This document shows positions 7,323 to 50,122 of a stretch of 64,000 nt of DNA, one piece after another. Below the pieces are notes generated by a model. The model made no database searches and was not told where the DNA came from. It worked only from the letters and a program-made list of their open reading frames with translations. Position numbers and translations under genes: made by a program. Each line of letters begins with the position of its first letter. Position 1 is the first letter of the stretch. Origin of the DNA: Amoebidium appalachense (lineage: Eukaryota > Protista > Ichthyosporea); assembly GCA_963693365.1 (NCBI GenBank), contig CAVNZM010000006.1:124001-188000 (forward strand), given 5' to 3'.

Positions 7323-7529
7323 AAGGTGTTATTATAAAGTACGACGTACACATCTACAACGGACAACACAATGCAGAGTGCACACAACACAAAGAGTATG
7401 CATAATCAGCAGAGCCCATCCTCAGGGGGGCCCCACGACATTGATCCACAGTACCCGTGTTTTGGCCCATTCACCTCGTCGACAAAACACATCTCTATTT
7501 ATGTTTCCCTTCAACATGGGTGGGTCACC
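7323..7529 (-). mobile_element. Poly-C-associated element, diverged A-like copy
   Basis: Reverse complement reads GGTGACCCACCCATGTTG...GGGTACTGTGGAT..GGGCCCCCCTGAGGATGGGCTCTGC..TATGCATACTCTTT..CGTACTTTAT, with G runs on both sides on the + strand. Confidence 0.75.
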
Positions 7530-9339: not shown

Positions 9340-12218
9340 GAGGTGGGGGGGGGGGGGGGGGGGAGATGGGATTGACATGTCATAGAATACAAATAATGCG
9401 TTATAGGAGCAGGGCGGGGGGGAGGGGGTGGGAGCAGGGGGTTATGCACAAAGAGCACCAATAACACAAACGCAAGTACAGGCAGCAACGGGACATAATC
9501 ATAGCTGCAGTAAGCAGGCTCAGAAAACCACAAACTCTAGTAACAGCCCTAGCAGCTCCTTTCGACTATTGAGTGCAGGCAATAACTAAGAACGTGCATG
9601 CCAGCAGGCAAAGTCCAAGCAGAAGAAGGCTTTACACAAACAAGCAGCGAGTGCCCAAGAGACGCAGAAATCACAACTTTCAAAGAGGCATATCTAAACG
9701 ATGTACGGTCATACCAACGTTCTCCTCGCTATAGACAATAAGACTGCACACCAACTACTGCTTTGCACGTGCCGTCACATGAAGACAAAAGGCATGCAAC
9801 CTAGCCGGAATAAAACCTTTACCCCTGGGGCGAAAGAGGGGGGGGGGGGGGGAGAAGGATTGTGCAATACAGGGCAGAAAAAAAGGATAAACGGATCCAG
9901 ACCACATTCCAATCCAAAAGAGGGTGAACGAGAGAACGAGCAGGGGAGAGGGGGTTGGGGGGGGGGGGGGGGGGGGGGTAGGGGGTGCATAGGCAAGCGG
10001 CCACACAAGGAGTACTGCGGCCGTGCCACGTGGAGGTGACAAGCGTACCTGTTTGGTTGCCCCACGGTTCACAGCCGCAACGGTCGCCTGGCAATTCTAA
10101 CTGCTGGAACAGGCGTATTGAGTTTGGTGCGCACTCAGCAAAACCAACGAAGGGCCGGTTCATGTGTTGGTCACAACAGCAAGCGAGCAAGATCCCGACG
10201 AGTACCCAACTGGATCCAAAGTAATCTGCACTGCAAGGAGCGCCTATTAAGAGATCTACACGGCATGGGCCAGGAACATCCGTACACCCCACAGGGTACG
10301 AGTGCGTGTACACCTCACAGGGCATGAGTGTTTGCTTACACGTCACACGCCATAAGCACCTAAATCGTGGTAGGCCATACCCATTGCCAGATGGGCAAGA
10401 TCCGAAGGGCCTTGCCCATGGCCAAACTACCAGCTCTGACACTACAAACAGGGCGCTCATCCTTGGCCTGTGGCCCTCCTGTGGCCGGTGCTTTGTTCGC
10501 TGGTTTTGCCTTGGCAACCATGAAGTGGTTTTCTGGCAAGGCCTCAAAGTGTGTTCCATTTTCGCAGCACGCAAACAATAAACTGGCGTGAAACTATGCC
10601 CCACAGGGCCAAAACAATCGCATTCCCGCCCGCTCAACCACTCGTACACGTGTACACCTGTGCCTCTTAGCCAATGGAATCCCGCCATCTTCTATCGCAC
10701 GTAAATAAGTTATTGGGTCAATGTCAGGGCTCAAAATGCTCCCACGAGGGGGTGTCGTTAGCACGGGTAAGAAGCATGCGTGATATTTAAAGCGCCAACG
10801 AGAGCTTTCAGAGGATTTTTCTTGGAGCAAAACAGTAATTATTTTAGAATATAATGAACTTTTTCATCATCACATCGTTTATATATATGTTTAGTATCGA
10901 AATACAAGATATAAACCTGGCTGTTTTCTCCCAGCACAAGCATGTACACCATGACACTCGAAGCTTGTACATGTGCCAGATGACGCAGCAGGCCCGGGTC
11001 GGGGGTCGGGGTGCGCGCCGCGCGCCGGAGGCTTAAATATATATATACACCCCAATATAGATTAGCACTGTTGATGTGCCCTCACAATAACCTATTGTTA
11101 ATTTTTGTAGCTGACAAGAGCTTTAAATCACATTTTAGGCCTAGATAGGAGAGCATATGCATCCGCTCCTTCAAATTATGGCGCCAGCGATGCCACTAAT
11201 GGCATATATCTCAGCTGTTCTAGGATGTCACTGTACGTGGTGATTTTGATATGCATACGAATTTAGAACGCAGTCGAGGCCTTTCGTAGCCTAAAAAAGT
11301 TCATGAATGCAAATATTTTTGCTTGACTATGCATATATATAATTTGAGTTCCCTTGCCGGGGCCGTCCACGTGTACACTTCACAATTCAGAATTCCGGTT
11401 GGGGGATAGAGATGTTGCCGCGCGCTCATTGGTCCGTGACCAACTAGCAAGCTCAACTAATCAAACAGGACTGTTTACATTACCAACCAATTACAGATAG
11501 CACATAATAGGAATTGTCTCCAAATACCTCAGAACTAACCTGAGCCAATCAACTGGCGGTAGCTCCCTCGTGTTACAGAATTCGGCAAAGATCTCCAACC
11601 GGTACTCTTTCTGCGCTATTCAAATCCCGGAAATCTGAAATAGAACGACTAAAAATTGTGAGTGCCCTTTCACACCCCCCCTCCCCCACACGCCATTGTC
11701 ACACATCTACATGTGGCGGGCCGGGCAGCTCTTCTAGTTAAAGCTAAATTTCATGTAGATCGTCTAAAAAGAACTATTTTGAATATAAAATGTACATTGA
11801 ATAAAATACCTTATATATTTATAACATAAAATCTTCATGGTGTGTTGCCCTCCTCGTAAAGGAACCCAATCAGATCGATGGGCGTGAAGGCATATCACGT
11901 GCCGCAATCAAAAGCCCCCCTAAATAGAGATTTACTGAAAAACGGGATGCCCAAGCATGCAGCAACTTTTACAGCAAAGCTGATTCGCATATTATCATGC
12001 ACGCATCTTGCTGCATGTTTTACTCACAATTCGTTCGCTGACGACGGCGGCGCTCTACACATGGAGAGTTTTGGCTCACAACGTATAAAAAGGTACGTAG
12101 CAGCCGGCCAGCTTCAGTTCGCCACGGTTGTGCTTGCCCCGCATCGTGTGTCTCTCCCAATCTCTGTTTGCGAGGGCGCCCCGCGGATTTTTCAACGTTT
12201 TCCCACACTCTCAACAAC

Positions 12219-15200
12219 ATGCCTCCCAATCAAGCCTCTAACGCCGTCGAGGTCGCCCGCCCGGCCGTCGATGCCACCGTCAAGCAGCAGGGTGACCAGC
12301 TGCTGGCGCAGACCGGCACGCAGAATGCCAAGGACTCTGCCGTTGCCCTCGTGCAGCTGATCAAGGGCCATGGCTTCCAGCTGCTTGAGGAGTTCTCCCT
12401 CGTCAACGTGCTCGGCGAGAACATGAAGAAGAACGGCAAGAAGGATGCCCCTGCCCGTGCTGGTGCCTGCATGACGGTCACGGCCCTGTGCCAGGAGGTC
12501 GGTGTCGGCATCGAGCCCTTCGTGCTGCCCCTATTTGCGCAGGTCATCGACCTGTTGGGCGACAAGGAGAAGCCCGTGCAGGTGGCTGCCACCGAGGCCG
12601 GCAACGCCGTCCTTGCCCTCATCCCCGCCAACGCCATCCGCACGGTCATGCCTGCGCTGCTGCAGAAGTCCCAGAAGTGGCAGTCGGCTCATTTCCGCAT
12701 GACGGCCGTCACGGCTCTGGCCAAGCGCGCCCCCATCCAGGTGGCACGTTGCATGCCCGACATCATCCCCTTCGTGTCCTCGCAGATGTGGGATTTGAAG
12801 AAGGAGGTTAAGGATTCCGCCAAGGAGGCTCTTCTGGCTGTGTGCGACTGCGTTGACAACAGCGACATTAAGCCTTTCGTGCCCAACCTGATCAAGTCCA
12901 TCGAGAACCCCAAGGAGGTGTGTTTTCTTGCAGTTTTTATGGAATGTGCTGGAACAGTAACGAGCAAACACGTTTTTTTGGCAACAACAACATATAGCGC
13001 ACATGCTCGCATAGCATGCACCACATTTGCAAGCACCACGGCATTGGCAACATGGATATGTAGCTAGCGAATTTTGTTGGTAATCTGCGCTAGCGAATTT
13101 TGTTGGTAACCTGCCAAGTTTTGATTTGGTGGGCCTCATGCATCTACGAGCTCGTGATTGGTGGATGGTAGCATGCACGTTCTAGTGGGCTTTTGGTTGT
13201 GTGAATGCAATAGGGGGACACGAGCACTACACGAGCACAAATTTACAGTTACAGTGGGCTTGGGGTTGTGTGCATGCAATATGGGGACACGAGAGAATTG
13301 CATTTTTTAATATGAGAATGAGAGTTCATGTGCAGACGAGATTTCTGACTGGTGTGCTTGTGCAGGTCCCCGAGACGCTGTACCTGCTTGCCAGCACGAC
13401 CTTCGTGCAGGTGGTTGAGTCCGGTGCTCTGTCCATCATCTCGCCTCTGCTTGAGCGCGGTTTCTCTGAGCGCGGCAACACGGTGGCCATCCGCCAGTGC
13501 GCCCGCATCATTGAGAACATGACCAAGCTGGTCGAGGAGCCCCGCGATATCTCCCCCTTCCTGCCCAAGCTGCTGCCCCGTCTGGAGCAGGCCAAGGTCG
13601 AGGTGTCAGACCCCGAGTGCCGTGATGTGTGCGGCAAGGCTGCCGACATCCTGACCCGCAAGGGTGAGGCTGCTGCCAACAGCAAGGCCAAGCTGCACGA
13701 CGTCGAGGCCATGCTTGCTGCCGTCAAGAAGGCTGCCGGTGGCGACAACCACAGCGACCTGTTTGTGCAGTCCCTCAGCTACATGAGCGCCATGGTGCTG
13801 ATGCTTGCCGACATCAAGGTCATCGATGCCCCCGTCTGGCACGCTGCCCTGACCCCCTACCTGGTGCAGTTCGTTGGTGGCCAGGACGTTGCCGTGCAGG
13901 TGGTCGATGCCATCCTGGGCGAGGTCGTCAAGGACATCACCCCCGAGGCCGAGGTCGAGGAGGAGGGCGATGCCGAGGAGCTCTGCAACTGCAACTTCCG
14001 CCTGGCCTACGGCTCCAAGATTCTGCTCAGCAACACCAACCTGCGCCTCAAGCGTGGCTACCGCTATGGTGTGCTCGGCAAGAACGACTGTGGCAAGACG
14101 TCGCTCCTGCGCGCCATTGCCGACCACCGTCTCGAGGGCTTCCCCACCGAGGATGAGCTGCGCACGGTGTTTGTAGCCACTGACATCCAGGGTGAGATGT
14201 CCGACATGACGGTGCTCGACTACATCTTTGCCGACCCTCTGCTGCGTGACTGTGGTGTGCCCCGTGAGGAGATGGCCAAGGTGCTCGACAGCGTCGGCTT
14301 CAACGAGAACTCCCCCGCCAACATCAACAGCCCCGTCGGCTCTCTGTCCGGTGGCTGGAAGATGAAACTGGCCCTGTCTCGCGCCATGTTGCTCAAGGCC
14401 GACATCATTCTGCTGGATGAGCCCACCAATCACCTCGACGCCTACAATGTCAAGTGGGTGGAGTCGTACCTGACCAACCTCAAGGACGTAACCTGCATCA
14501 TGGTGAGCCACGACTCTGGCTTCCTCGACCGTGTGTGCACGCACATGATCGAGATCAAGGACCTCAAGCTCAACATCGCCAAGGGCAACCTCAGCGACTA
14601 CCTGCAGAACCGCCCCGACGCCAAGGCCTACTTCGAGTTCAAGACGTCCAGCAACAAGTTGCCCTTCCGCTTCCCCGCACCAGGTCCCCTTGAGGGCATC
14701 AACACCAAGGGCAAGCCCATCCTCAAGATGACGGATATCACGTTCACCTACCCCGGTGCCTCCAAGCCCCAGCTGCGCGGCGTCACTGTGCGCTGCTCTC
14801 TGGCCTCCCGTGTGGCCTGTGTCGGTGTCAACGGTGCCGGCAAGTCCACCATGATTAAGCTTCTGACCGGTGAGCTGGTGCCCGACGCAGGGTCCGGTGA
14901 GGTGTGGAAGCACCCCAATGCCCGTGTGGCCTACGTGGCCCAGCACGCCTTCCACCACATTGAGAGCCACCTCGACAAGACGGCCAACGAGTACATCTTG
15001 TGGCGCTACCAGTATGGCAAGGACAAGGAAGGTCTCGAGAAGGTCACCATGCAGCTGACGCCCGAGGAGGAGGAGCAGATCAACAAGCCCTTCCAGGTCG
15101 ACATCACCGACTCTGAGGGCAACGTCAAGAAGGAGAAGCGCATCCTCGAGAAGTTCACCGAGGGCCGTCGCCAGAAGGGCAAGACCACGGAGTACGAGAT

Positions 15201-16391
15201 CGAGTGGCGCGGGTTCAGCGGCGAGCCCACGTGGGTGGACATCGAGGTTCTGCTCAAGCAGGGCAGCGCCTTCGAGAAGCTCATCAAGCAGACCGATGAG
15301 GCCATTGCCATGAGCGCCGGTGCCTACCAACGCCCCCTGACCATGAAGAACGTCGAGGAGCACCTCGAGGGCTTCGGTCTCGAGCGCGAGTTCGGCACCC
15401 ACACCCGCATCCGTGCCCTGTCCGGTGGGCAGAAGGTCAAGGTCGTGCTGGCTGCTGCCATGTGGAACTGCCCGCATCTGCTCATTCTGGACGAGCCCAC
15501 CAACTATCGTGCGTATTCCTTCCCTCATGCCTCCTCACAGCGTCGTGTTGCTTAACTAGTGTTGCTTAGCTTGTGCGGAGGGGTGTCTTGTGCTTTTTGC
15601 AGTGGTGTTTAGCTTGTGCTTTGCCCTTTTTTATTTGTGCCCTCCCCCCCCCCCCCCCCCCCCCACCTTCGATAAGTTGCTTGCATTTTTGCCCTGCCCC
15701 CCTTCAGTCACCCATCCTTTTTTTATTTGTGCCCTCCCCCCTCCCCCCCCCCCCCCACCTTCGATAAGTTGCTTGCATTTTTGCCCTGCCCCCCTTCAGT
15801 CACCCATCCTTTTTTTATTTGTGCCCTCCCCCCTCCCCCCCCCCCCCACCTTCGATAAGTTGCTTGCATTTTTGCCCTGCCCCCCTTCAGTCACCCATCC
15901 TTTTTTTATTTGTGCCCTCCCCCCTCCCCCCCCCCCCCCCACCTTTGATAAGTTGCTTGCATTTTTGCCCTGCCCCCCTTCAGTCACCCATCATATCAAC
16001 GACCCAACATGTGCTAACTAAACCTTCCCCCCCTGTAGTGGACCGCGAGTCTCTTGCCCAGCTTGCCGATGCCATCCGCGTGTACGAGGGTGGTGTGGTG
16101 ATGATCACGCACAACAATGCGTTCTGCAGTGAGCTGTGCCCCGAGGTGTGGCACTTGGAGAACAACACCCTCAACCTCAAGGGTGATGCCGAGTGGATGG
16201 AGAAGGCCATGAAGGAGAAGATCGAGGTCAAGGAGCTCGATGACGTGGTCAAGGACCGCTACGGCAACGACGTCAAGGTCAAGAAGGCCGACAAGAAGCT
16301 CAGCAGGGCCGAGCTCAAGAAGAAGGAGAAGCAGCGCAAGGCAAGAAAGGCCATGGGCCTGGCCTCAGAGTCCGAGGAGGACGACGAGTAA
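12219..16391 (+). CDS. eEF3: Translation elongation factor 3 (eEF3/Yef3-like ABC-F ATPase), about 1064 aa
   Basis: Exons 12219-12917, 13366-15508, 16039-16391 join in frame (DEPTNY/L/DRESL across intron 2). HEAT-like N-terminus; TTFVQVV..LSIISPLLERG; EELCNCNFRLAYGSKILL; ABC1 (GKNDCGKTS, LSGGWKMKLAL, LLDEPTNHLD); ABC2 (GVNGAGKST, VAYVAQHAFHHI, chromodomain-position insert, LSGGQKVKVV); Lys-rich then acidic tail. Strong C/G third-position bias. Confidence 0.96.
15625..15991. repeat. ~90 bp tandem repeat x4 filling eEF3 intron 2
   Basis: Unit CCTTTTTTTATTTGTGCCCT-Cn-ACCTTCGATAAGTTGCTTGCATTTTTGCCCTGCCCCCTTCAGTCACCCAT, four near-identical copies. Confidence 0.92.
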
Positions 16392-16739
16392 GTCATTGGT
16401 CGACCCGACCCGGCCCGTATCCATGCCCGTGGGGCCGATTAGAACCGAACCGAACGACGCGCCGACCCAAAAGGTCACCTCCCTTCTGAATGATGTTAGT
16501 GTGTTTGTAGCCGTGAACGTGAAATATGACCCGTCCCTTGGTGGTGTGCGGGCTGGCGGCCTGGTGCCGTCATTGTAGTGGCCTGATCTGATGTGTATAA
16601 TGCACGAGACGCAACTGGTTGCTTTTATTAATTAAACTGATTGATTTTGTCAACGTCATGACTGTCTGCGGCCGCCCTTCCCCTATCTCCCCCCCCCCCC
16701 CCGGGGGGGGGAACACATGCACATAGCGTAACACATAAT

Positions 16740-17377: not shown

Positions 17378-17628
17378 TACTGCCCTTGCCTGCATAAGTA
17401 ACCCTGCTCGTCTCTGATCAAGACGGGTGACCTACCCATGTTCAAATGAAACAGTATCTGAGTTGGGTTTCGTTAACGAGATGAATAGGTCGAAACTCGG
17501 GTACTGTGGATGACGTGGGCCCCCCTGAGGATGGGCTATGCATACTCTTTATGTATGGCTTGCATTCTGCATTCTACATGGTGTTATCCGTTGTTCTTGT
17601 GTACTTCGTACTTTATGACGCATTCAAA
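17378..17628 (+). mobile_element. Poly-C-associated element, subfamily A, near-full ~250 bp copy
   Basis: Cn-TACTGCCCTTGCCTGCATAAGTAACCCTGCTCGTCTCTGATCAAGACGGGTGACCTACCC...GACGCATTCAAA-Cn; collinear with 20826-21089. Confidence 0.9.
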
Positions 17629-17832
17629 CCCCCCACCCCCCTCCCCCTCCCTCCCCCTCTTCCCCCCCACACGCCCACACCCACACGTGTTGCGCCCAAG
17701 AGTACCCTCTCTGCCCGGCTGCAATCCACACTGCCTCCCCCCCCCCACCCATCCACATGCACAGTGTCACATGCGATGGCCCCCTCCCCTCTACCATCCA
17801 CAACGTCATGCCAACAGGTATGTGCCAGTCCC

Positions 17833-19907: not shown

Positions 19908-19943
<36 letters not shown>

Positions 19944-20190
19944 TGCTCGCATGAGTAAGCCTTCTCGTCTTTGATCAAAACGGGTGACCCACCCATGTTC
20001 AAGTGAAGCAGTATCTGAGTTGAGTTTAGTTGTAGTTGACGAGGTGAATGGGCCGAAGCTCGGGTGGGAGACTTGGGCCCCCCAGAGGATGTGCTCTGCT
20101 GATGATGCACGTTCTAGCTATTTGCTCTGCAACTTCTGCATTGTGTTTTCGTCGTAAATACATACTTGGTGCTCTGTAGCACATGGTAAA
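19944..20190 (+). mobile_element. Poly-C-associated element, diverged copy
   Basis: CTCGTCTTTGATCAAAACGGGTGACCCACCCATGTTCAAGTGAAGCAGTATCTGAGTT...GGGCCCCCCAGAGGATG...ACATGGTAAA-Cn, between C runs. Confidence 0.8.
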
Positions 20191-20825
20191 CCCCCCCCTC
20201 CCCCCTCCCCCCTTCCCCCCCACACAACACACACAAGTGAACACACTTGCACCCTTACGCACAGGAGCACACGTGTACACATAGGCTTCCAAACAGATCC
20301 AACACACACGCATACTATACACACGCACGCAGGCACATGCACGCACGAACATATGCATACACACATGCACATATGCGCGCACCCACACACACACACACAC
20401 ACACACACGCACGCACACGCATGCACACACACACACGCGCACACCGTGGCACAGGCATTATGCAGAGAAACATGCGCGCACACACACAGAACCTCAGAAA
20501 CACACACACACACTTTCTTACGCAAACACATACAAACACATCCACACACATATGGACACAACGTTGACACACGGGCACACACATGCACAAGCACACATTG
20601 GACCGAGTTACACACACACACACACACACATACCTCCTGCCCCCCCCGCCCCCCCCCATTGCGAATTCTGCGGCCTTCGGGACTTAATTCTTTTCAGCTG
20701 GTGTAGTATGTTAGCCAGGGAAGTATCGACTTAGGTAGCGACGGGGGAGCTTCCTAGAAGCCCCGTCTCCTGAGTTCCTATCTATATTTTTCTTGCTTCT
20801 GCTTACTGCTGCAACTTTAACCCCC

Positions 20826-21089
20826 GGCCTTTCCCACTGCCCTTGCCTGCATAAGCAACCCTGCTCGTCTCTGATCAAGACGGGTGACCTACCCATGTTC
20901 AAGTGAAACAGTATCTGAGTTGGGTTTCGTTAACGAGGTGAATAGGTCGAAACTCGGGTACTGTGGATGACGTGGGCCCCCCCTGAGGATGGGCTCTGCT
21001 TATTATGCATACTCTTTATGTATGGCTTGCATTCTGCATCGTGTTATCCGTTTGTTCTTGTGTACTTCGTACTTTTTGACGCATTCAAA
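20826..21089 (+). mobile_element. Poly-C-associated element, subfamily A, longest copy (~265 bp)
   Basis: Complete structured core plus 3' tail ending GACGCATTCAAA-Cn. Confidence 0.9.
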
Positions 21090-21914
21090 CCCCCCCCCCC
21101 CACCCTTCCGTTCCACCATGCATGCAGACATTGGACAGATATACACAAACAGCTGCGCACACCCACCCACCCCACCCCTCCTTCCCCCCCCTTCCATCTC
21201 CTAATCCCCCCCCCCTCTCCCCGCCCCCCGCCTCCTATGCACATACACACATTGGCCAGACACACAGAGACACACACACGGCTACACACTGCACCGACCC
21301 GAACCCCCCCCCCCCCCCCCCCCCCATCACCACACACACACACACACCCGGAGGGGCTTCCGCACCTCTCTCCCCACCACTCCCATCTCTCAGTGACTAC
21401 CACCTGCGATCCAAAGCATGTGTAATCCTCGATGCCTGCAACAGTGTGGTCTGATTGGTCCATTGCCTTGGTGTTGCAGCATGAGGGTGGGGCATGCCTG
21501 GCAGCCAATGTGCTTTGACGGTTAAAATGAAAAGATCAAGTATAAGCCGAGTCTTGTGCATTCTAGGCGCTTGTGGAAAGCGGCTTCAAGCATATAAACG
21601 TGCTTCCTTGGTCGGTGCGTTTACATACCCCCTCCCCCCACACACATCCCCCCCCCCCCCCTTGCGAGCCCAGCCCAAAACCTTCATGGGTCATACACTC
21701 CTAGAGAGATACACACACACACACAGACACAAACAAACCCACCCAGCCACCCCCCCCCCCCCCACACACACACACACACACGTGCGCGAACTAAGAAGCG
21801 GACACACAGACAAACAGTGTCACATACATCCACATGTGCACACACACATACACACAGACATCACTGCTGTATGCGCGAATACACACACCACATAACTAGA
21901 CACACGCACGCACG

Positions 21915-22026
<112 letters not shown>

Positions 22027-22237
22027 TGTGTGCAAAACCACAAATACATGCGCGCACACCACACAGACTGCACACGCACACACTTTTGGCAGACACACAA
22101 ACCTGCTTTTCCTTCCCCTCCCCCCCTTCCCCCCCCCTCCCCCCCCCCCCCCCCCCCAGCTTCTCTCCCCCCCCCCCCCCCCCCCCCACCTCGCCTCCTC
22201 CAACCACCCCCCTCTCGATCCCCCCCCCCCCCCCCCC

Positions 22238-23342
22238 GTATATACGCGGGCTAAGGGGTCGAAACTCAGACGCAATTGATGACTTGGGTCCTCCCTGAGG
22301 ATGGGCTCTGCTTATGACGCATACTGTGCACATGGCTGATGTTGCATACTTGAATGTTTGCCTTTGCATGTGTCCTGCACCATGCTTCTCGTCGTGTATG
22401 CGTACTTTGTACCGTGTTCCGCATTCAAAACCCCCCCAGTCTTCTTTCAGAGGTGTCCTTTCAGGACAGACCACTGTGTGGAGACCGCTTTACTTCCATG
22501 CAACCGGGCATGGTTGCTCTGTGTCGTGCATCTGTAAGCACATCCACATTTTTCGCTGCACTGCATTAGTTTGCACACACATCTTCACCGTTTTGCTCAC
22601 CTTGCTTGCATAAGCAACCCTGCTCGTCTTTGATCAAGACGGGTTGACCCGCCCAAGCTCAGTTGATGCTGCTGTCTGAGTTGGAGTGTCGTATATACGC
22701 GGGCTAAGGGGTCGAAACTCAGACGCAATTGATGACTTGGGTCCTCCCTGAGGATGGGCTCTGCTTATGACGCATACTGTGCACATGGCTGATGTTGCAT
22801 ACTTGAATGTTTGCCTTTGCATGTGTCCTGCACCATGCTTCTCGTCGTGTATGCGTACTTTGTACCGTGTTCCGCATTCAAAACCCCCCCAGTCTTCTTT
22901 CAGAGGTGTCCTTTCAGGACAGACCACTGTGTGGAGACCGCTTTACTTCCATGCAACCGGGCATGGTTGCTCTGTGTCGTGCATCTGTAAGCACATCCAC
23001 ATTTTTCGCTGCACTGCATTAGTTTGCACACACATCTTCACCGTTTTGCTCACCTTGCTTGCATAAGCAACCCTGCTCGTCTTTGATCAAGACGGGTTGA
23101 CCCGCCCAAGCTCAGTTGATGCTGCTGTCTGAGTTGGAGTGTCGTATATACGCGGGCTAAGGGGTCGAAACTCAGACGCAATTGATGACTTGGGTCCTCC
23201 CTGAGGATGGGCTCTGCTTATGACGCATACTGTGCACATGGCTGATGTTGCATACTTGAATGTTTGCCTTTGCATGTGTCCTGCACCATGCTTCTCGTCG
23301 TGTATGCGTACTTTGTACCGTGTTCCGCATTCAAAACCCCCC
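22238..23342 (+). mobile_element. Poly-C-associated element, subfamily B, head-to-tail multimer (~2.4 units of 453 bp)
   Basis: C-run junctions start at 22431, 22884 and 23337 (period 453). Units look identical, the first is 5'-truncated, and the left flank is a C run. Confidence 0.93.
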
Positions 23343-23833
23343 TCCACACACACACACACACACGCACACACACACACAATTGCCCCCACCCCTCTCCTTA
23401 CACACGCAGCTATGGCCATATGATTGCTCCCAGTCTAGCAGCAAGCACAGCACACACCATGCAACATAATGCACGGAATCCACAAAACACATTTTTGGTT
23501 GAAAATCCGATCCAGTTGCAGCAGTCTCCACCGGCCCCGGTGGGAAGGATAAACCTGAATTTGTGCTGGTGGCATGATCACAGGCCCCGGGGTGATAGGG
23601 GAGATGGTGGGGTTGCAGGGTGTGCGGGCGGGGTGGCGGGAGAATGGGGGAGGGGGGAGGGGGAGGGCCGGGATGGGTGGGGAGGGGAGCGGGGAGGGAG
23701 GGGGGATGGGGAGGGGGTTGCAGCAGTCGACACCACTTGTAGGTACGAAGATTTTCAATGTGGCAGGATTCAGATAAAAAATCCGGATACACGCGGAGAG
23801 AGGTACGGTTGGGAATTGCAATATTGGGTGGTT

Positions 23834-32723: not shown

Positions 32724-34994
32724 CTTCGGAAGTAATGCACCATGAAGGGGGAGCCATGGCGTAAATATAAGATAGAATAGATTTACCTTTATCCGCGCAT
32801 TCCAAGCCCATCGTACACGACTGCGTACATGTGTGCCACAGCTGGCGGTCACGGCTCTCCGATCATGGGCGAATCTGATTCACGTGGATACGTGTCTGGG
32901 CCAAAATTATCGGAATAATCTGAACCAGCGCTCTTATCATTGCCAGTCAATACGAATATATACCGCAGGGAAGTTCATTGGAAAGCTGCCTACAAGATAT
33001 AAGCATCTTGGTAGACAGGGGTATTCAATCTTGCCCTGGGCGACGTCGACCATGTGATGTGAGTCGTCGCGTAACGCGAGATTCGTGAATTCGAATCTGC
33101 TGGACCACGGGCCGCTGTTGTATGTAGCTAGCTGATCCTGCTCACGTACTTGTTCGAAGTGCGGGCACGCGCGCGCCAGCTCAGTGCACACGCCCAGGCC
33201 ATAGTATATAGCTTTGGGCAAAGTGTGTACTTATAGTTAGGTTGTGAAGGATGGTTTAGCTAGCTGTACTCATAGATAGCACCTTAACTAGTGTACTGTC
33301 GGTGCTGTGTGGTAGACGGTAGTTTCCCTAGAGGGCCTGAAAAGGCCCTCCGGGATTGTACAAAACGTGATAAAATAAAAAAACATAGTATATAGCTCCG
33401 TGAAATGCTTGATAGAACAGCCTGGCCGCAAAGCCAACTTTGAATTACCTCAGTATATATATTATCGGAAATAAATCTAATTAGTTCTAGTTGTAGCTAG
33501 ACAGCGCCATAAAACTGCTGAAGCACTTGATAATGTCATTACCTAAGGAGTCTGAATAGAAAATTCCTCCGATACTTGAAGGCATATCCACTTGCATCTT
33601 ATACGAGGACACAAAACTATCTTTGTAGCATTTAGGCTTATTTGGTTCCATCACATTAGTACAGTCTATCTACGTAAAGTATATCCAAGGAGTCGAAATA
33701 AGTTGGCCGTACGTGCGCGGCGTGTCACCTGCTCCGTGACTGCATGCAGGTCGGACACGCTACTACTGACTGTAGAAGGCTTGACCGAAGTTCAAAGGGC
33801 CAGTCACAGCCTGTCTCCGAAGTGACCTGGGGCTCAGAAGTGACCTGTGTTTCTAAGTAGGGTTACCCTTGCCGGCATACTAACATTATGATATACCTTC
33901 ACTAGTTTCTGAGTGTCAGTTGACTACGGTTGTCACTACGCGTACGGTTAGCTCAGACTGTCTTGGGCCACTGCCGCTGAAAGTGGAAGCAGTCACTGCC
34001 TCCGGGACGTCGCAGGGCCTAGCAAGGTTCTAATTAGATTCTGCCCGTTCCGACTAGTACTTGCAAGACTTAGTCTGGACAAGTTAACTTAAACCATACT
34101 ATATTATCAAGAATCACCGCCTTGATTCGGGGTCAGCTACCGTGAGCGTCTCAGTGGGACGTTGCTGTGCTCGAACACGGTCGACCTAGTTTAAAGTCTG
34201 ATGGAAGGAGGTTTAAGTTTTGTTAGGCTTATAATATACTAGTCACTGCAGCGGACAGCTCAGACACAGGCTGTACATGTCAGTGAATGGCATCGCCGTA
34301 GTAAGGCATCCGATTTCAATGGCAACTTGCTAGACTCAATGGCAACCCGGCCGTTAACGTTGGCGTAATTTACTGCAGCGAGTGAGTCAGTCTGGCCGTG
34401 CATTGTCAAGGCAGGTCCAGTGCTCAGTACTCCTAGGAGTCAGTCTCGGAGCCTGCCGGCAGCCGCACTTGCCAACTGAGCGGCCACCCACACGGTCACC
34501 GCGCACCGTCCTGATTCTGAACTAGAAGCTTTCAATCGTGACGTACAGCCGTCGTGCAAAGTTTGCCAGGAAAAGGTTGGTGACCGTTAATCTTTCAACT
34601 TACGGTGGTAGCTCCGGCGCAAGGACAGTGCTGTTAGGCTGCTACCGTAGTAACAGTGAGCTGCAGGGCACAGAAGGACACAACCCTGACTGGGGCTCTA
34701 TTCACACAGCCGGCCGCATTGGCATAACTAAGTCAGCCGGTGGTACTTTAATATTTCAGTGGAGAGAAGGTGACATGGCCCTGTCGTTCCTTTCTTTGCA
34801 TCATTGTGTGGCTCACTAGGCTTAAATACAGTCAGTCTGCTCACGTACAGATTGAGTTGTTAGCAACATGCCGCCGGCTGCTCAGCATTATTGCCGCCTA
34901 AATATGCCTGCCGCACGGTTACCTGCTGCGCAAGTGTCACCGTTGTGATGGCTAGCCGGCATTGACACCTCTCACCCTGCAGCCTGCAGTGCCT

Positions 34995-36491
34995 ATGCAA
35001 GCAACCATGATGGACCCGCCAGACGGCTGGCCGCTGTTTCCCGACATGCACCCTCAGTCCGCCCGCTATCGCAGCGCCCGGTCCCACCGGGCCAGCCAGC
35101 TCTCGGACGGCCCACACCCGGGCCACGGTCGCACGGCCAGCCTGCGGGAGTATGGCCAGCCAGCCTGGCTGGAGTCTGAGTCCCCCTCGGTGCACGGCGC
35201 CTGGGCCGCCCCACCTCAACACCCGAACCGTGGCGAGGGCACCAGCCACACGGCCTGGCACGGCCCCAGCCAGCGCCACCCCGCCCAGTGGGATGGCCCT
35301 GAGGGGCCCTGGAGTTCCCCCCCGGCTGCCTGGCAGCGTGGGGCCCCTGCCACGCAGGCCTGGCTGCAGCAGCTGCCGCCCCCCTCGGCCAGCCCGCCCA
35401 GCACCTGCCGGGCCTGCTGCCGCTACCTTGGGCCCTGCGAGGCCCACAGTGGCCTCCAAAACCCAGCCGCCCGCGGACCACGCAGCCGGGCGGCAAGCTG
35501 CCCGGTGGGCCGGCAGACCGAGTGGAGGGAGGGAGCTGGGGTGGGGGACGAGGTGCACCGGCAGGCCAAGCACGGGGCGTCTGCCGACTGGACGCTTCCC
35601 CCCCACAAGCTGGCCCGGCACTGCCTCAGCCTGGGCCCCCGCAGCAGCCTGGGGGACAGCGGCTGCCTACCGGACTACCAGGACTGCTGGTCGGCGGCCC
35701 AGCTGCCGCCCCCAGCCCACGGCCACAGACGGCCCCATCACCCGGCCACCTACAGCAGCTCACCAAGTGTGGCCCACGACAGCGGCTGGTGTTCCAGCCC
35801 CCCCCGGGCCCCCGGCAGCAGCAGGACCCCCCAGGAGGCCGAGCGGCAACGGCCAGCCAGCCGGGCCAGTGTGCACGGGCCCGCAGCCGCACAGGCGGCT
35901 AGCCCAGACACAGTGAGCCCACCGCCAGCCATGCCCTCCCCAGGGCCTGGGGCCGGCACAGGCCCAGGGTCGCCCTCCGAGGACATCCTGCTGCAGGCGC
36001 AGCGGCGGCACGGGCTGTGTGGGCGGCGCAGCAACCGCAGCAAGAAGCATGCCACACGGCTGCAGTTCCTGGCCTTGGTGCTGCGCACCACAAGAATAGG
36101 CACGCCTGCGGCCCCAAACACAACCCCCAGCTACCAGCTGCTGCCGCCCTTCCGTCGCATACAGGTGAGCTATCCTGCTGTCCCGCAAGTTGCGGTAAGG
36201 GAAGGGGCCTAGGACTAGTACTAAGATTAGGCTAAGACTTGGCCTGACACACACCTGAGTGACCGTTTTGTATGGTCTAGTAGAGCTAGGGCTAGGGGCC
36301 CATCTGATAGCAGCCGCATTGGGCTGGGGGCTGAGTGTGTGGGGTAGGGCGAGGACAGCGACTCGCTGCGGGGGCACTTCAACAGCGAGCAGCAGGCGGC
36401 CGGGGAGACTATCAGCAATGCCACAGCGCAGGCCTGGTTCAAGGCCATACTGCTGGACAGCGCGGCCTTTGCCAGGGAGGAGGCCGACTGA
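34995..36491 (+). CDS. Hypothetical protein (~437 aa), Pro/Ala/Ser-rich, two exons
   Basis: Long GC-rich ORF to a phase-0 CAG|GTGAGC donor at 36164; TAG|GGC acceptor at 36348 gives an in-phase 48-codon exon (GEDSDSLRGHFNSEQQAAGETISNATAQAWFKAILLDSAAFAREEAD*). No family recognised; start codon uncertain. Confidence 0.6.
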
Positions 36492-37270
36492 CCCCCGGGC
36501 ACCCCCATAATACATGTAGCCTTAGTTGGGAACTCGGGGTGTAGGTGCCCAGCCCTTTCGGCCCTTGGGGCAGCTCTCAGAGACAGTCCGACGGCCAGCC
36601 TGAGTGCGGCCTCACAGCATGTTACAGTACAGTATGTAGCACGTTTTTAGGCGGCCACGGTGCCTGCAGCCAGTGGCAGTGGCTCTCGTGGTCACTACGG
36701 CACCGTACAGTGTTTATTTGATACTATATGGTTCGGCCCACAGGGCCTGAGCGACAGACTGGTACGTTCACAGTGTGTACGTGTGTGTGTGGGGCCGCGG
36801 CTGGGGGGGCGGTGGGGCGGGGAGGAGGCGGGGCTAGCATCGGCCACTGCTAAGTTTCAGATCGCCCGGTGACGGATCGATCGATGATCGGATCTGCCGT
36901 CAGCCCAGTCCACACAAGTCCAAGGTCGACCCCGGCAAGCGACGCACCTCAGAGTGAAAACTGTTGAACTTGCCACTCAGTCACAAGCCATGCTTGCCTG
37001 CACGGTTGCAATTGTGCACTCCCCCCACTGCGCATACGTTCATCATCCCCTCTGCCTAGCCACCCCCTCTGCCCCTTGCTGCCTGTGTGCGTGTGCGTGC
37101 ACCAGCCACCCAACCGTTTCGCACGTGCACCGTTCCTCGCCAACGTGGAGCCCACCCCCTCCTCCGCTACCTCTTACCCTCCCTCCACCCCCACCCCCGG
37201 TGTAGACGCACTTGAAGATGTTTTAAAATGCTGCGCCCACGTAACGCCGCCGCCCCACCGCCCTGCTGTG

Positions 37271-50122
<12,852 letters not shown>

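Follow-up and report, generated by a model that had tools for sequence, protein, structure and literature searches.

A predicted split-core hammerhead ribozyme in a non-coding tandem repeat of an ichthyosporean genome

A non-coding tandem repeat in the window, the 64-kb stretch of DNA analysed here, probably encodes a functional self-cleaving hammerhead ribozyme with a split core, as judged from its sequence. The predicted ribozyme has the strand order known as type SGC, with the 5′ strand of stem II moved upstream. In the scheme of Eckert et al. (2023; PMC10085705) the hammerhead consists of blocks S, G and C, and these authors validated the order S-G-C in vitro. The order in the repeat, site-GAAA-CUGANGA in place of the canonical site-CUGANGA-GAAA of types I, II and III, is therefore already known and is not the new topology that an earlier, sequence-only reading offered as one option. 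The same reading saw a weakness in the gap between CUGAGGA and the stem II strand. The separation is real; instead of a weakness it is the actual novelty, because Eckert et al. assume that block C cannot be interrupted. The new feature is thus a stem II strand that lies upstream of the cut site and not after CUGAGGA.

In the subfamily B unit, all parts of which lie on the forward strand (+), the 5′ strand of stem II is GACCC at 22646..22650 (G10.1 = 22646), which forms 5 Watson-Crick pairs with GGGUC at 22709-13 and is detached from CUGAGGA. It is followed at 22652..22657 by the 5′ strand of the stem I-II helix, the ‘I’ interaction of type SGC, which forms 6 pairs with the 3′ strand at 22736..22741. 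The stem III 5′ strand and the GUU triplet (22680-82) occupy 22673..22682, with stem III itself comprising 9 pairs (22673-81/22717-25), and the cut is predicted 3′ of U22682. The stem I 5′ strand at 22683..22686 pairs with 22744-47, and the stem is short, with 4 bp in B and 3 bp in A. Sequence pairing places the stem II 3′ strand, GAAA (22714-17) and the stem III 3′ strand together at 22709..22725, while 22744..22755 holds the stem I 3′ strand, CUGAGGA (22748-54) and an extra U after A9, as in SGC ribozymes. The unit is closed by a helix, P0, whose 5′ strand (22609..22620) forms 8 + 3 pairs (pair probability 0.99/0.82) with a 3′ strand at 22756..22769, the first bases of which double as a rival stem II strand. 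Hairpin H1 (22623..22643, 8 pairs) carries a self-complementary UGAUCA at its tip, and the linker that separates the stem I strand from the stem II strand holds a 10-nt palindrome at 22690..22699. Every coordinate that the sequence-only reading had given for stems I, II and III, GUU, GAAA and CUGAGGA was recovered on re-location in the sequence; the stem I-II helix (22652-57/22736-41), P0 and H1 had been missed.

Subfamily A, represented by the copy at 20841-21097, has 6 pairs in stem II, 13 in stem III and 3 in stem I. The core nucleotides CUGANGA, GAAA, UH, G10.1-C11.1 and A15.1-U16.1 are present in 7 copies in the window. UGAUCA in H1 is kept in both subfamilies (22630-22637; 20872-20877), and the stem I-II linker carries 10-nt palindromes of different sequence in B (22690-22699) and A (20927-20936); such self-complementary loops may promote pairing between molecules. 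A UGA bulge adjoining the stem I-II helix is also kept in both (22733-22735; 20968-20970) and may be a tertiary contact.

The repeat shares with type SGC (HRIMA-1 and the SGC variant) the strand order, all core nucleotides and the extra U after A9. Both also have a stem II strand that leads, through a short spacer, into a helix linking stems I and II, and one member of the SGC variant has nearly the same letters as the repeat in stem II and the stem I-II helix. In published SGC alignments the stem II strand comes next after the extra U; a short spacer then leads to a helix formed with the strand that precedes stem I. The SGC search patterns permit an extra U after CUGAUGA (PMC10085705). The repeat differs from SGC in that the chain is opened between A9/U and G10.1, within block C, and in that the piece made of stem II strand, spacer and helix strand lies on the 5′ side, joined to stem III. 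Further differences are the addition of P0 and H1, a long rod that unites the SGC 5′ and 3′ ends, and a hairpin in the position of the stem I-II linker, where SGC has about 3 nt. Since the SGC pieces are present and the stem II piece is 5′, the repeat reads as a circular permutation of SGC opened at A9/U-G10.1, a plausible break point given that SGC and Penelope-like hammerheads already have an additional nucleotide at position 9/10.1. Type CSG, reported from only two metagenomic sequences (PMC10085705), has the same cyclic block order as the repeat, but there CUGANGA remains attached to stem II and the opening follows stem III. Eckert et al. did not find SGC motifs in genomes of known organisms, whereas the present motif sits in a eukaryotic genomic repeat.

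We found no description of a split-core hammerhead in the literature covered, which was mostly open access; it included portions of PMC6765202, PMC13725137, PMC10162972 and PMC3088659. A precedent may exist in Weinberg et al. (2015, Nat Chem Biol), to which other papers refer for hammerhead variants with additional helices. The portions of PMC11244446 that were covered mention neither ribozymes nor Penelope.

The same region could instead fold as an ordinary type-SGC hammerhead, in which stem II would be built from 22757-62 after CUGAGGA, with a 2-nt insertion, and GACCC would form an inhibitory alternative helix. In this register B could form 6 pairs and A could form 4, and insertions of one or two nt after CUGANGA are known (PMC10085705). 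Its pairing is also improved in two decayed copies, where a change that is not listed at 2% in the sequencing runs disrupts the second pair of stem II to the benefit of the rival stem. Yet that stem is weaker by 2 to 4.5 kcal/mol: the upstream duplex is predicted at −7.1 kcal/mol versus about −5.1 to −5.4 for the rival in B, and at −6.7 versus −2.2 in A. The change seen in A breaks the fifth pair of the rival stem, the stem competes with P0, and the stem I-II helix loses its SGC geometry. A stem II strand directly after CUGAGGA and one U would make only 2 pairs, the best strand being the upstream one. We regard the ordinary SGC fold as improbable.

Comparison of the two subfamilies supports the split-core helices. 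As the sequence-only reading had claimed, subfamily A changes both sides of each helix: stems I, II and III carry one both-sided change apiece, and stem III has three additional one-sided compatible changes. The stem I-II helix likewise differs on both sides between A and B. In stem I, the fourth pair of B is lost to a mismatch in A. This covariation comes from two or three subfamilies in the window and so represents few independent events. The ribozyme domain is 77% identical between A and B, versus 54% and 51% in the flanks; a shuffle control for the upstream flank gave a mean of 48% and a maximum of 53%. In contigs of four sequencing runs, no variant of at least 2% is listed in 20886-89, 20914-25, 20945-55 or 20981-95, and the common helix variants are mostly wobble-compatible or paired. 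The two partners of stem II pair 5 show similar levels of variation, with 3-5% on each side in three DNA runs and depths of 1433.8 and 1433.5 in run X13; these variant data are unphased and in part mirror the same A/B difference.

Shuffling with the core words held fixed, at thresholds taken from the real sequence, reproduced all four helices in 1 of 60,000 trials for B and in none of 60,000 for A. A looser descriptor matched 7 places in the window, all of them copies of this repeat, and matched 0 of 138 null loci carrying both core words, with stems I and III only in 2 of the 138; a loose scan of viral contigs (120 of about 3600 stretches) served only as a null set. Pattern scans gave 3 matches in viral contigs and 15 in metagenome contigs, none of them with flanking helices. 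Together, the core words, compensatory changes and chance tests bear out the hammerhead reading and the assignment of GACCC/GGGUC to stem II, both of which the sequence-only reading had proposed. That the core words arose by chance, or belong to a box C/D snoRNA-like RNA (UGAUGA in the 22731-36 region, with CUGA boxes downstream), appears very remote: chance is rejected by the shuffle and null-locus tests, and the snoRNA reading, which the C- and D-like words and the short terminal stem of B favour, was rejected because the distal D box and terminal stem are missing in A and the unit has no Rfam snoRNA hit. Rfam gave no gathering-level match across the window, and in 20500-23400 returned only weak or low-complexity miRNA, snoRNA and lncRNA matches, all below the gathering score; ARAGORN found nothing relevant.

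The split layout places the two halves of the core at opposite ends of one structure. Stem III and the stem I-II helix form a single long hairpin. Its tip loop contains the cut site and GAAA together with one strand from stem I and another from stem II; its base contains the partner strands of both stems and CUGAGGA. Predicted folding gives P0, H1 and the long hairpin as a scaffold in which the stem II 5′ strand is unpaired with a probability of 0.85 in B and 0.91 in A. CUGAGGA is predicted to be unpaired only 0.38 of the time in B owing to a competing local hairpin, and the probability of P0 drops to 0.14 in A when folded in full-unit context. By itself, the 201-nt region did not exceed its shuffles in stability (z = −0.04). 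A rod-like viroid fold of a monomer circle was unsupported (z = −0.42), and an apparently constant rod length of 22 bp was dropped, as the count in B depends on the chosen register.

In the mechanism that we propose, the core would be opened at the A9/G10.1 link and held together by P0 and H1, the hairpin tip would dock on the base through stems I and II to form the usual active site, and the docked core would cut after U22682. A rod of roughly 22-25 paired steps separates tip and base, making docking between neighbouring units more likely; our structural reasoning accordingly leans, by a modest degree, toward docking between two units in a head-to-tail transcript rather than within a single unit that folds back on itself. 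The sequence-only reading had offered a new topology and a core assembled from two units as alternatives. These are not exclusive, since the break is needed either way, and the two-unit assembly is plausible.

Docking in cis, with one unit bending at its bulges or fraying at the far end of stem III, is one form of the split-core reading and by itself has a lesser, though appreciable, probability. One unit holds every part and is closed by P0, and published SGC monomer constructs cleave during transcription, including one form with a geometry hard to fit to the crystal structure (PMC10085705). A 7-nt bulge in A is a possible hinge, whereas in the minimum-energy fold of B the bulges measure only 1-2 nt and leave the rod almost continuous. 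In A, a 6-bp helix and a 6-nt linker would have to span the 13-bp stem III, the core and stem II, a distance of about 60 Å at a helix rise of 2.8 Å per step. Stem III is also 13 bp in the Naiad_Anas elements described below, where one strand has no linker.

The DNA that carries the repeat is eukaryotic and microsatellite-rich. An intron-containing elongation factor 3 gene lies at 12042-16392 (+); its scanned ORF is 84% identical to that of Ichthyophonus hoferi, and the identity to Sphaeroforma arctica is 61%, which identifies the host as an ichthyosporean, a unicellular relative of animals. About 12 full or partial copies of the repeat occur in the window, in two main subfamilies, A and B. The subfamily B array at 22237..23342 (+) comprises 2.4 copies of a 453-bp non-coding unit (TRF, 100% match), is 5′-truncated with C-tracts at both ends, and shows 0 differences over 653 overlapping bases between units. 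An internal C-tract at 22884..22890 (+) is likely the point of integration or priming, and all 8 genomic copies inspected end at or near it. A second subfamily B tandem at 38635..39358 (+) contains 1.6 units with a 452-bp period, is about 96% identical to the 22 kb array and has 0 differences over 272 overlapping bases. Subfamily A is represented by a copy of about one full unit at 20659..21097 (+), with the ribozyme domain at about 20850-21004, and by a 5′-truncated copy with an intact core at 17384..17634 (+). An older subfamily B copy at 44858..45325 (+) has H1 partly deleted, and the core words are broken in two decayed A-like copies, at 19941..20197 (+) and 7336..7529 (−). The 5′ ends of the window copies are scattered, and C-tracts flank the copies.

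Sequencing runs coded as four organisms also contain the 453-bp unit. Contig depth summed over the element in three DNA runs, a quantity that does not equal copy number, was 0.06-1.8 million versus 7-17.5 on the flank; with the density of copies in the window, this suggests thousands to tens of thousands of copies. In run X13 the element reached a summed depth of about 30,000 and the flank 21364-21600 had 0, a contrast that we do not take as evidence of expression because low-coverage DNA would give the same picture and the RNA nature of X13 is only a guess. Run X12 had G>A near 100% at several sites and was left out of further analysis. A contig of run X1 contains a joint going back 453, compatible with either tandem or circular units.

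The host element is likely a mobile, non-autonomous Penelope-like retroelement, or retrozyme. A helper reverse transcriptase would copy multimeric or circular RNA into C-tracts, and the ribozyme cut would trim multimers to unit length. Reverse transcription of such RNA fits the C-tract end, the 5′ truncation and the contrast between identical units within a locus and differences of about 4% between loci; local duplication is the alternative source of the identical tandem units. Craig et al. (2021; PMC8557442) describe Chlamys elements, Penelope-like elements that target (C)n and include non-autonomous head-to-tail members. The repeat resembles Chlamys in its (C)n targeting and both Naiad and Chlamys in 5′ truncation, head-to-tail copies and non-autonomous members; microsatellite targeting, a fixed 3′ end and 5′ truncation are all found in it. 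As to a coding partner or helper, the 36 of 254 window ORFs scanned contained no GIY-YIG or reverse transcriptase Pfam domain.

The repeat also resembles non-LTR retrozymes, which are non-coding tandem units of a few hundred bases with one hammerhead each and are proposed to originate from Penelope-like repeats (bioRxiv 10.64898/2026.07.22.740005): it is dispersed, present in high copy and built of non-coding tandem units with one hammerhead-like domain each. The hammerheads of those animal elements are of type I and canonical order, whereas that of the repeat is scrambled, split and found in a unicellular holozoan. Dimer-dependent cutting, reported for minimal Penelope hammerheads (PMC4209133) and a feature of retrozymes, matches the docking proposed for the repeat.

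Elements of the Naiad group offer animal counterparts of the split form. Craig et al. (2021) report that Naiad and most Chlamys elements are without canonical hammerheads and that some of their core words fit no descriptor; in the portions covered here the paper does not mention ichthyosporeans. We judged 81 CGAAAC places in its supplement by eye, without a tool. At consensus ends, 7 of the 81 show the same split layout with unrelated helix letters; another 7 are contiguous type-CSG hammerheads at Naiad 3′ ends, four looked canonical and the rest had no hammerhead, and among the Chlamys places no split form was seen. The split-form Naiad places make up three clean groups, with one place having only 2 bp of stem I. 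In the Naiad_Anas group (three related records), stem II has 6 bp, stem I 6, stem III 13 and the joining helix 9, and P0 and a hairpin (H1) are positioned as in the ichthyosporean repeat. Two further records are octopus-type, one of which, Naiad_Ovul, is annotated HHR_half_core in Craig et al., and the remaining two are single records, one of them the place with the 2-bp stem I. The split-form ends have no usable stem II strand after CUGANGA (at most 2 pairs); they matter because the ordinary SGC fold requires such a strand and so does not apply to them. As a separate observation, motifs compared by eye with a twister alignment suggest that the 3′ end of Naiad-1_Movir resembles a twister ribozyme.

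The fold could also be real and selected while cutting is absent or negligible, with a hammerhead-derived structure that binds the helper reverse transcriptase or dimerises RNA. None of the 12 window copies starts at the cut site, the nearest start being 7 nt downstream, and the run contigs show no depth step there. Tandem copies run across the cut site, which implies that the template is uncut or re-joined. GUU is a slower triplet than GUC, and the self-complementary loops have been retained. Penelope-like hammerheads cleave poorly in vitro, and in one such element hammerhead mutations left insertion unaffected and no reads ended at the cut site (PMC11167929). Against a non-cutting structure, subfamilies A and B, like the animal Naiad examples, retain all of UH, CUGANGA, GAAA and G10.1-C11.1, as expected under selection on catalysis. 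We consider a non-cutting role unlikely, and a functional split-core ribozyme remains our preferred reading.

We put at about even a broader interpretation, in which the repeat represents a seventh natural hammerhead wiring (SGC order, A9/G10.1 break, added junction and tip-to-base dimer), the missing ribozyme of Naiad elements from unicellular holozoans to corals and octopus, and the genomic origin of the scrambled hammerheads that were initially discovered in viroid-like RNAs. If the repeat cuts, the scheme of six hammerhead permutations would be incomplete, because nature would have broken a block assumed to be indivisible. The split form escapes both Rfam and standard descriptors, so a large class of genomic ribozymes may be uncounted. 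If correct, the interpretation would also explain, in a testable way, the apparent absence of hammerheads in Naiad elements, would place non-circularly permuted hammerheads in the genome of a unicellular animal relative, and would make the A9/G10.1 opening a natural site for engineering split or switchable ribozymes.

Several further features of the window and the runs were observed. The region 34860-36521 is GC-rich and has long overlapping ORFs on both strands, without a Pfam match, and the last intron of the elongation factor 3 gene holds a 92-bp tandem unit in 4 copies (98% match) at 15627-15992. Beyond 20662, the upstream limit of the A copy, contigs in runs X13 and X7 continue with sequence that differs from the tandem junction, and subfamily A may therefore represent the 3′ end of a longer element. 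Over 20889-20986, run X2 contains a short insert from a relative that has diverged further and in which the rod between GAAA and CUGAGGA is much shorter, hinting at further subfamilies.
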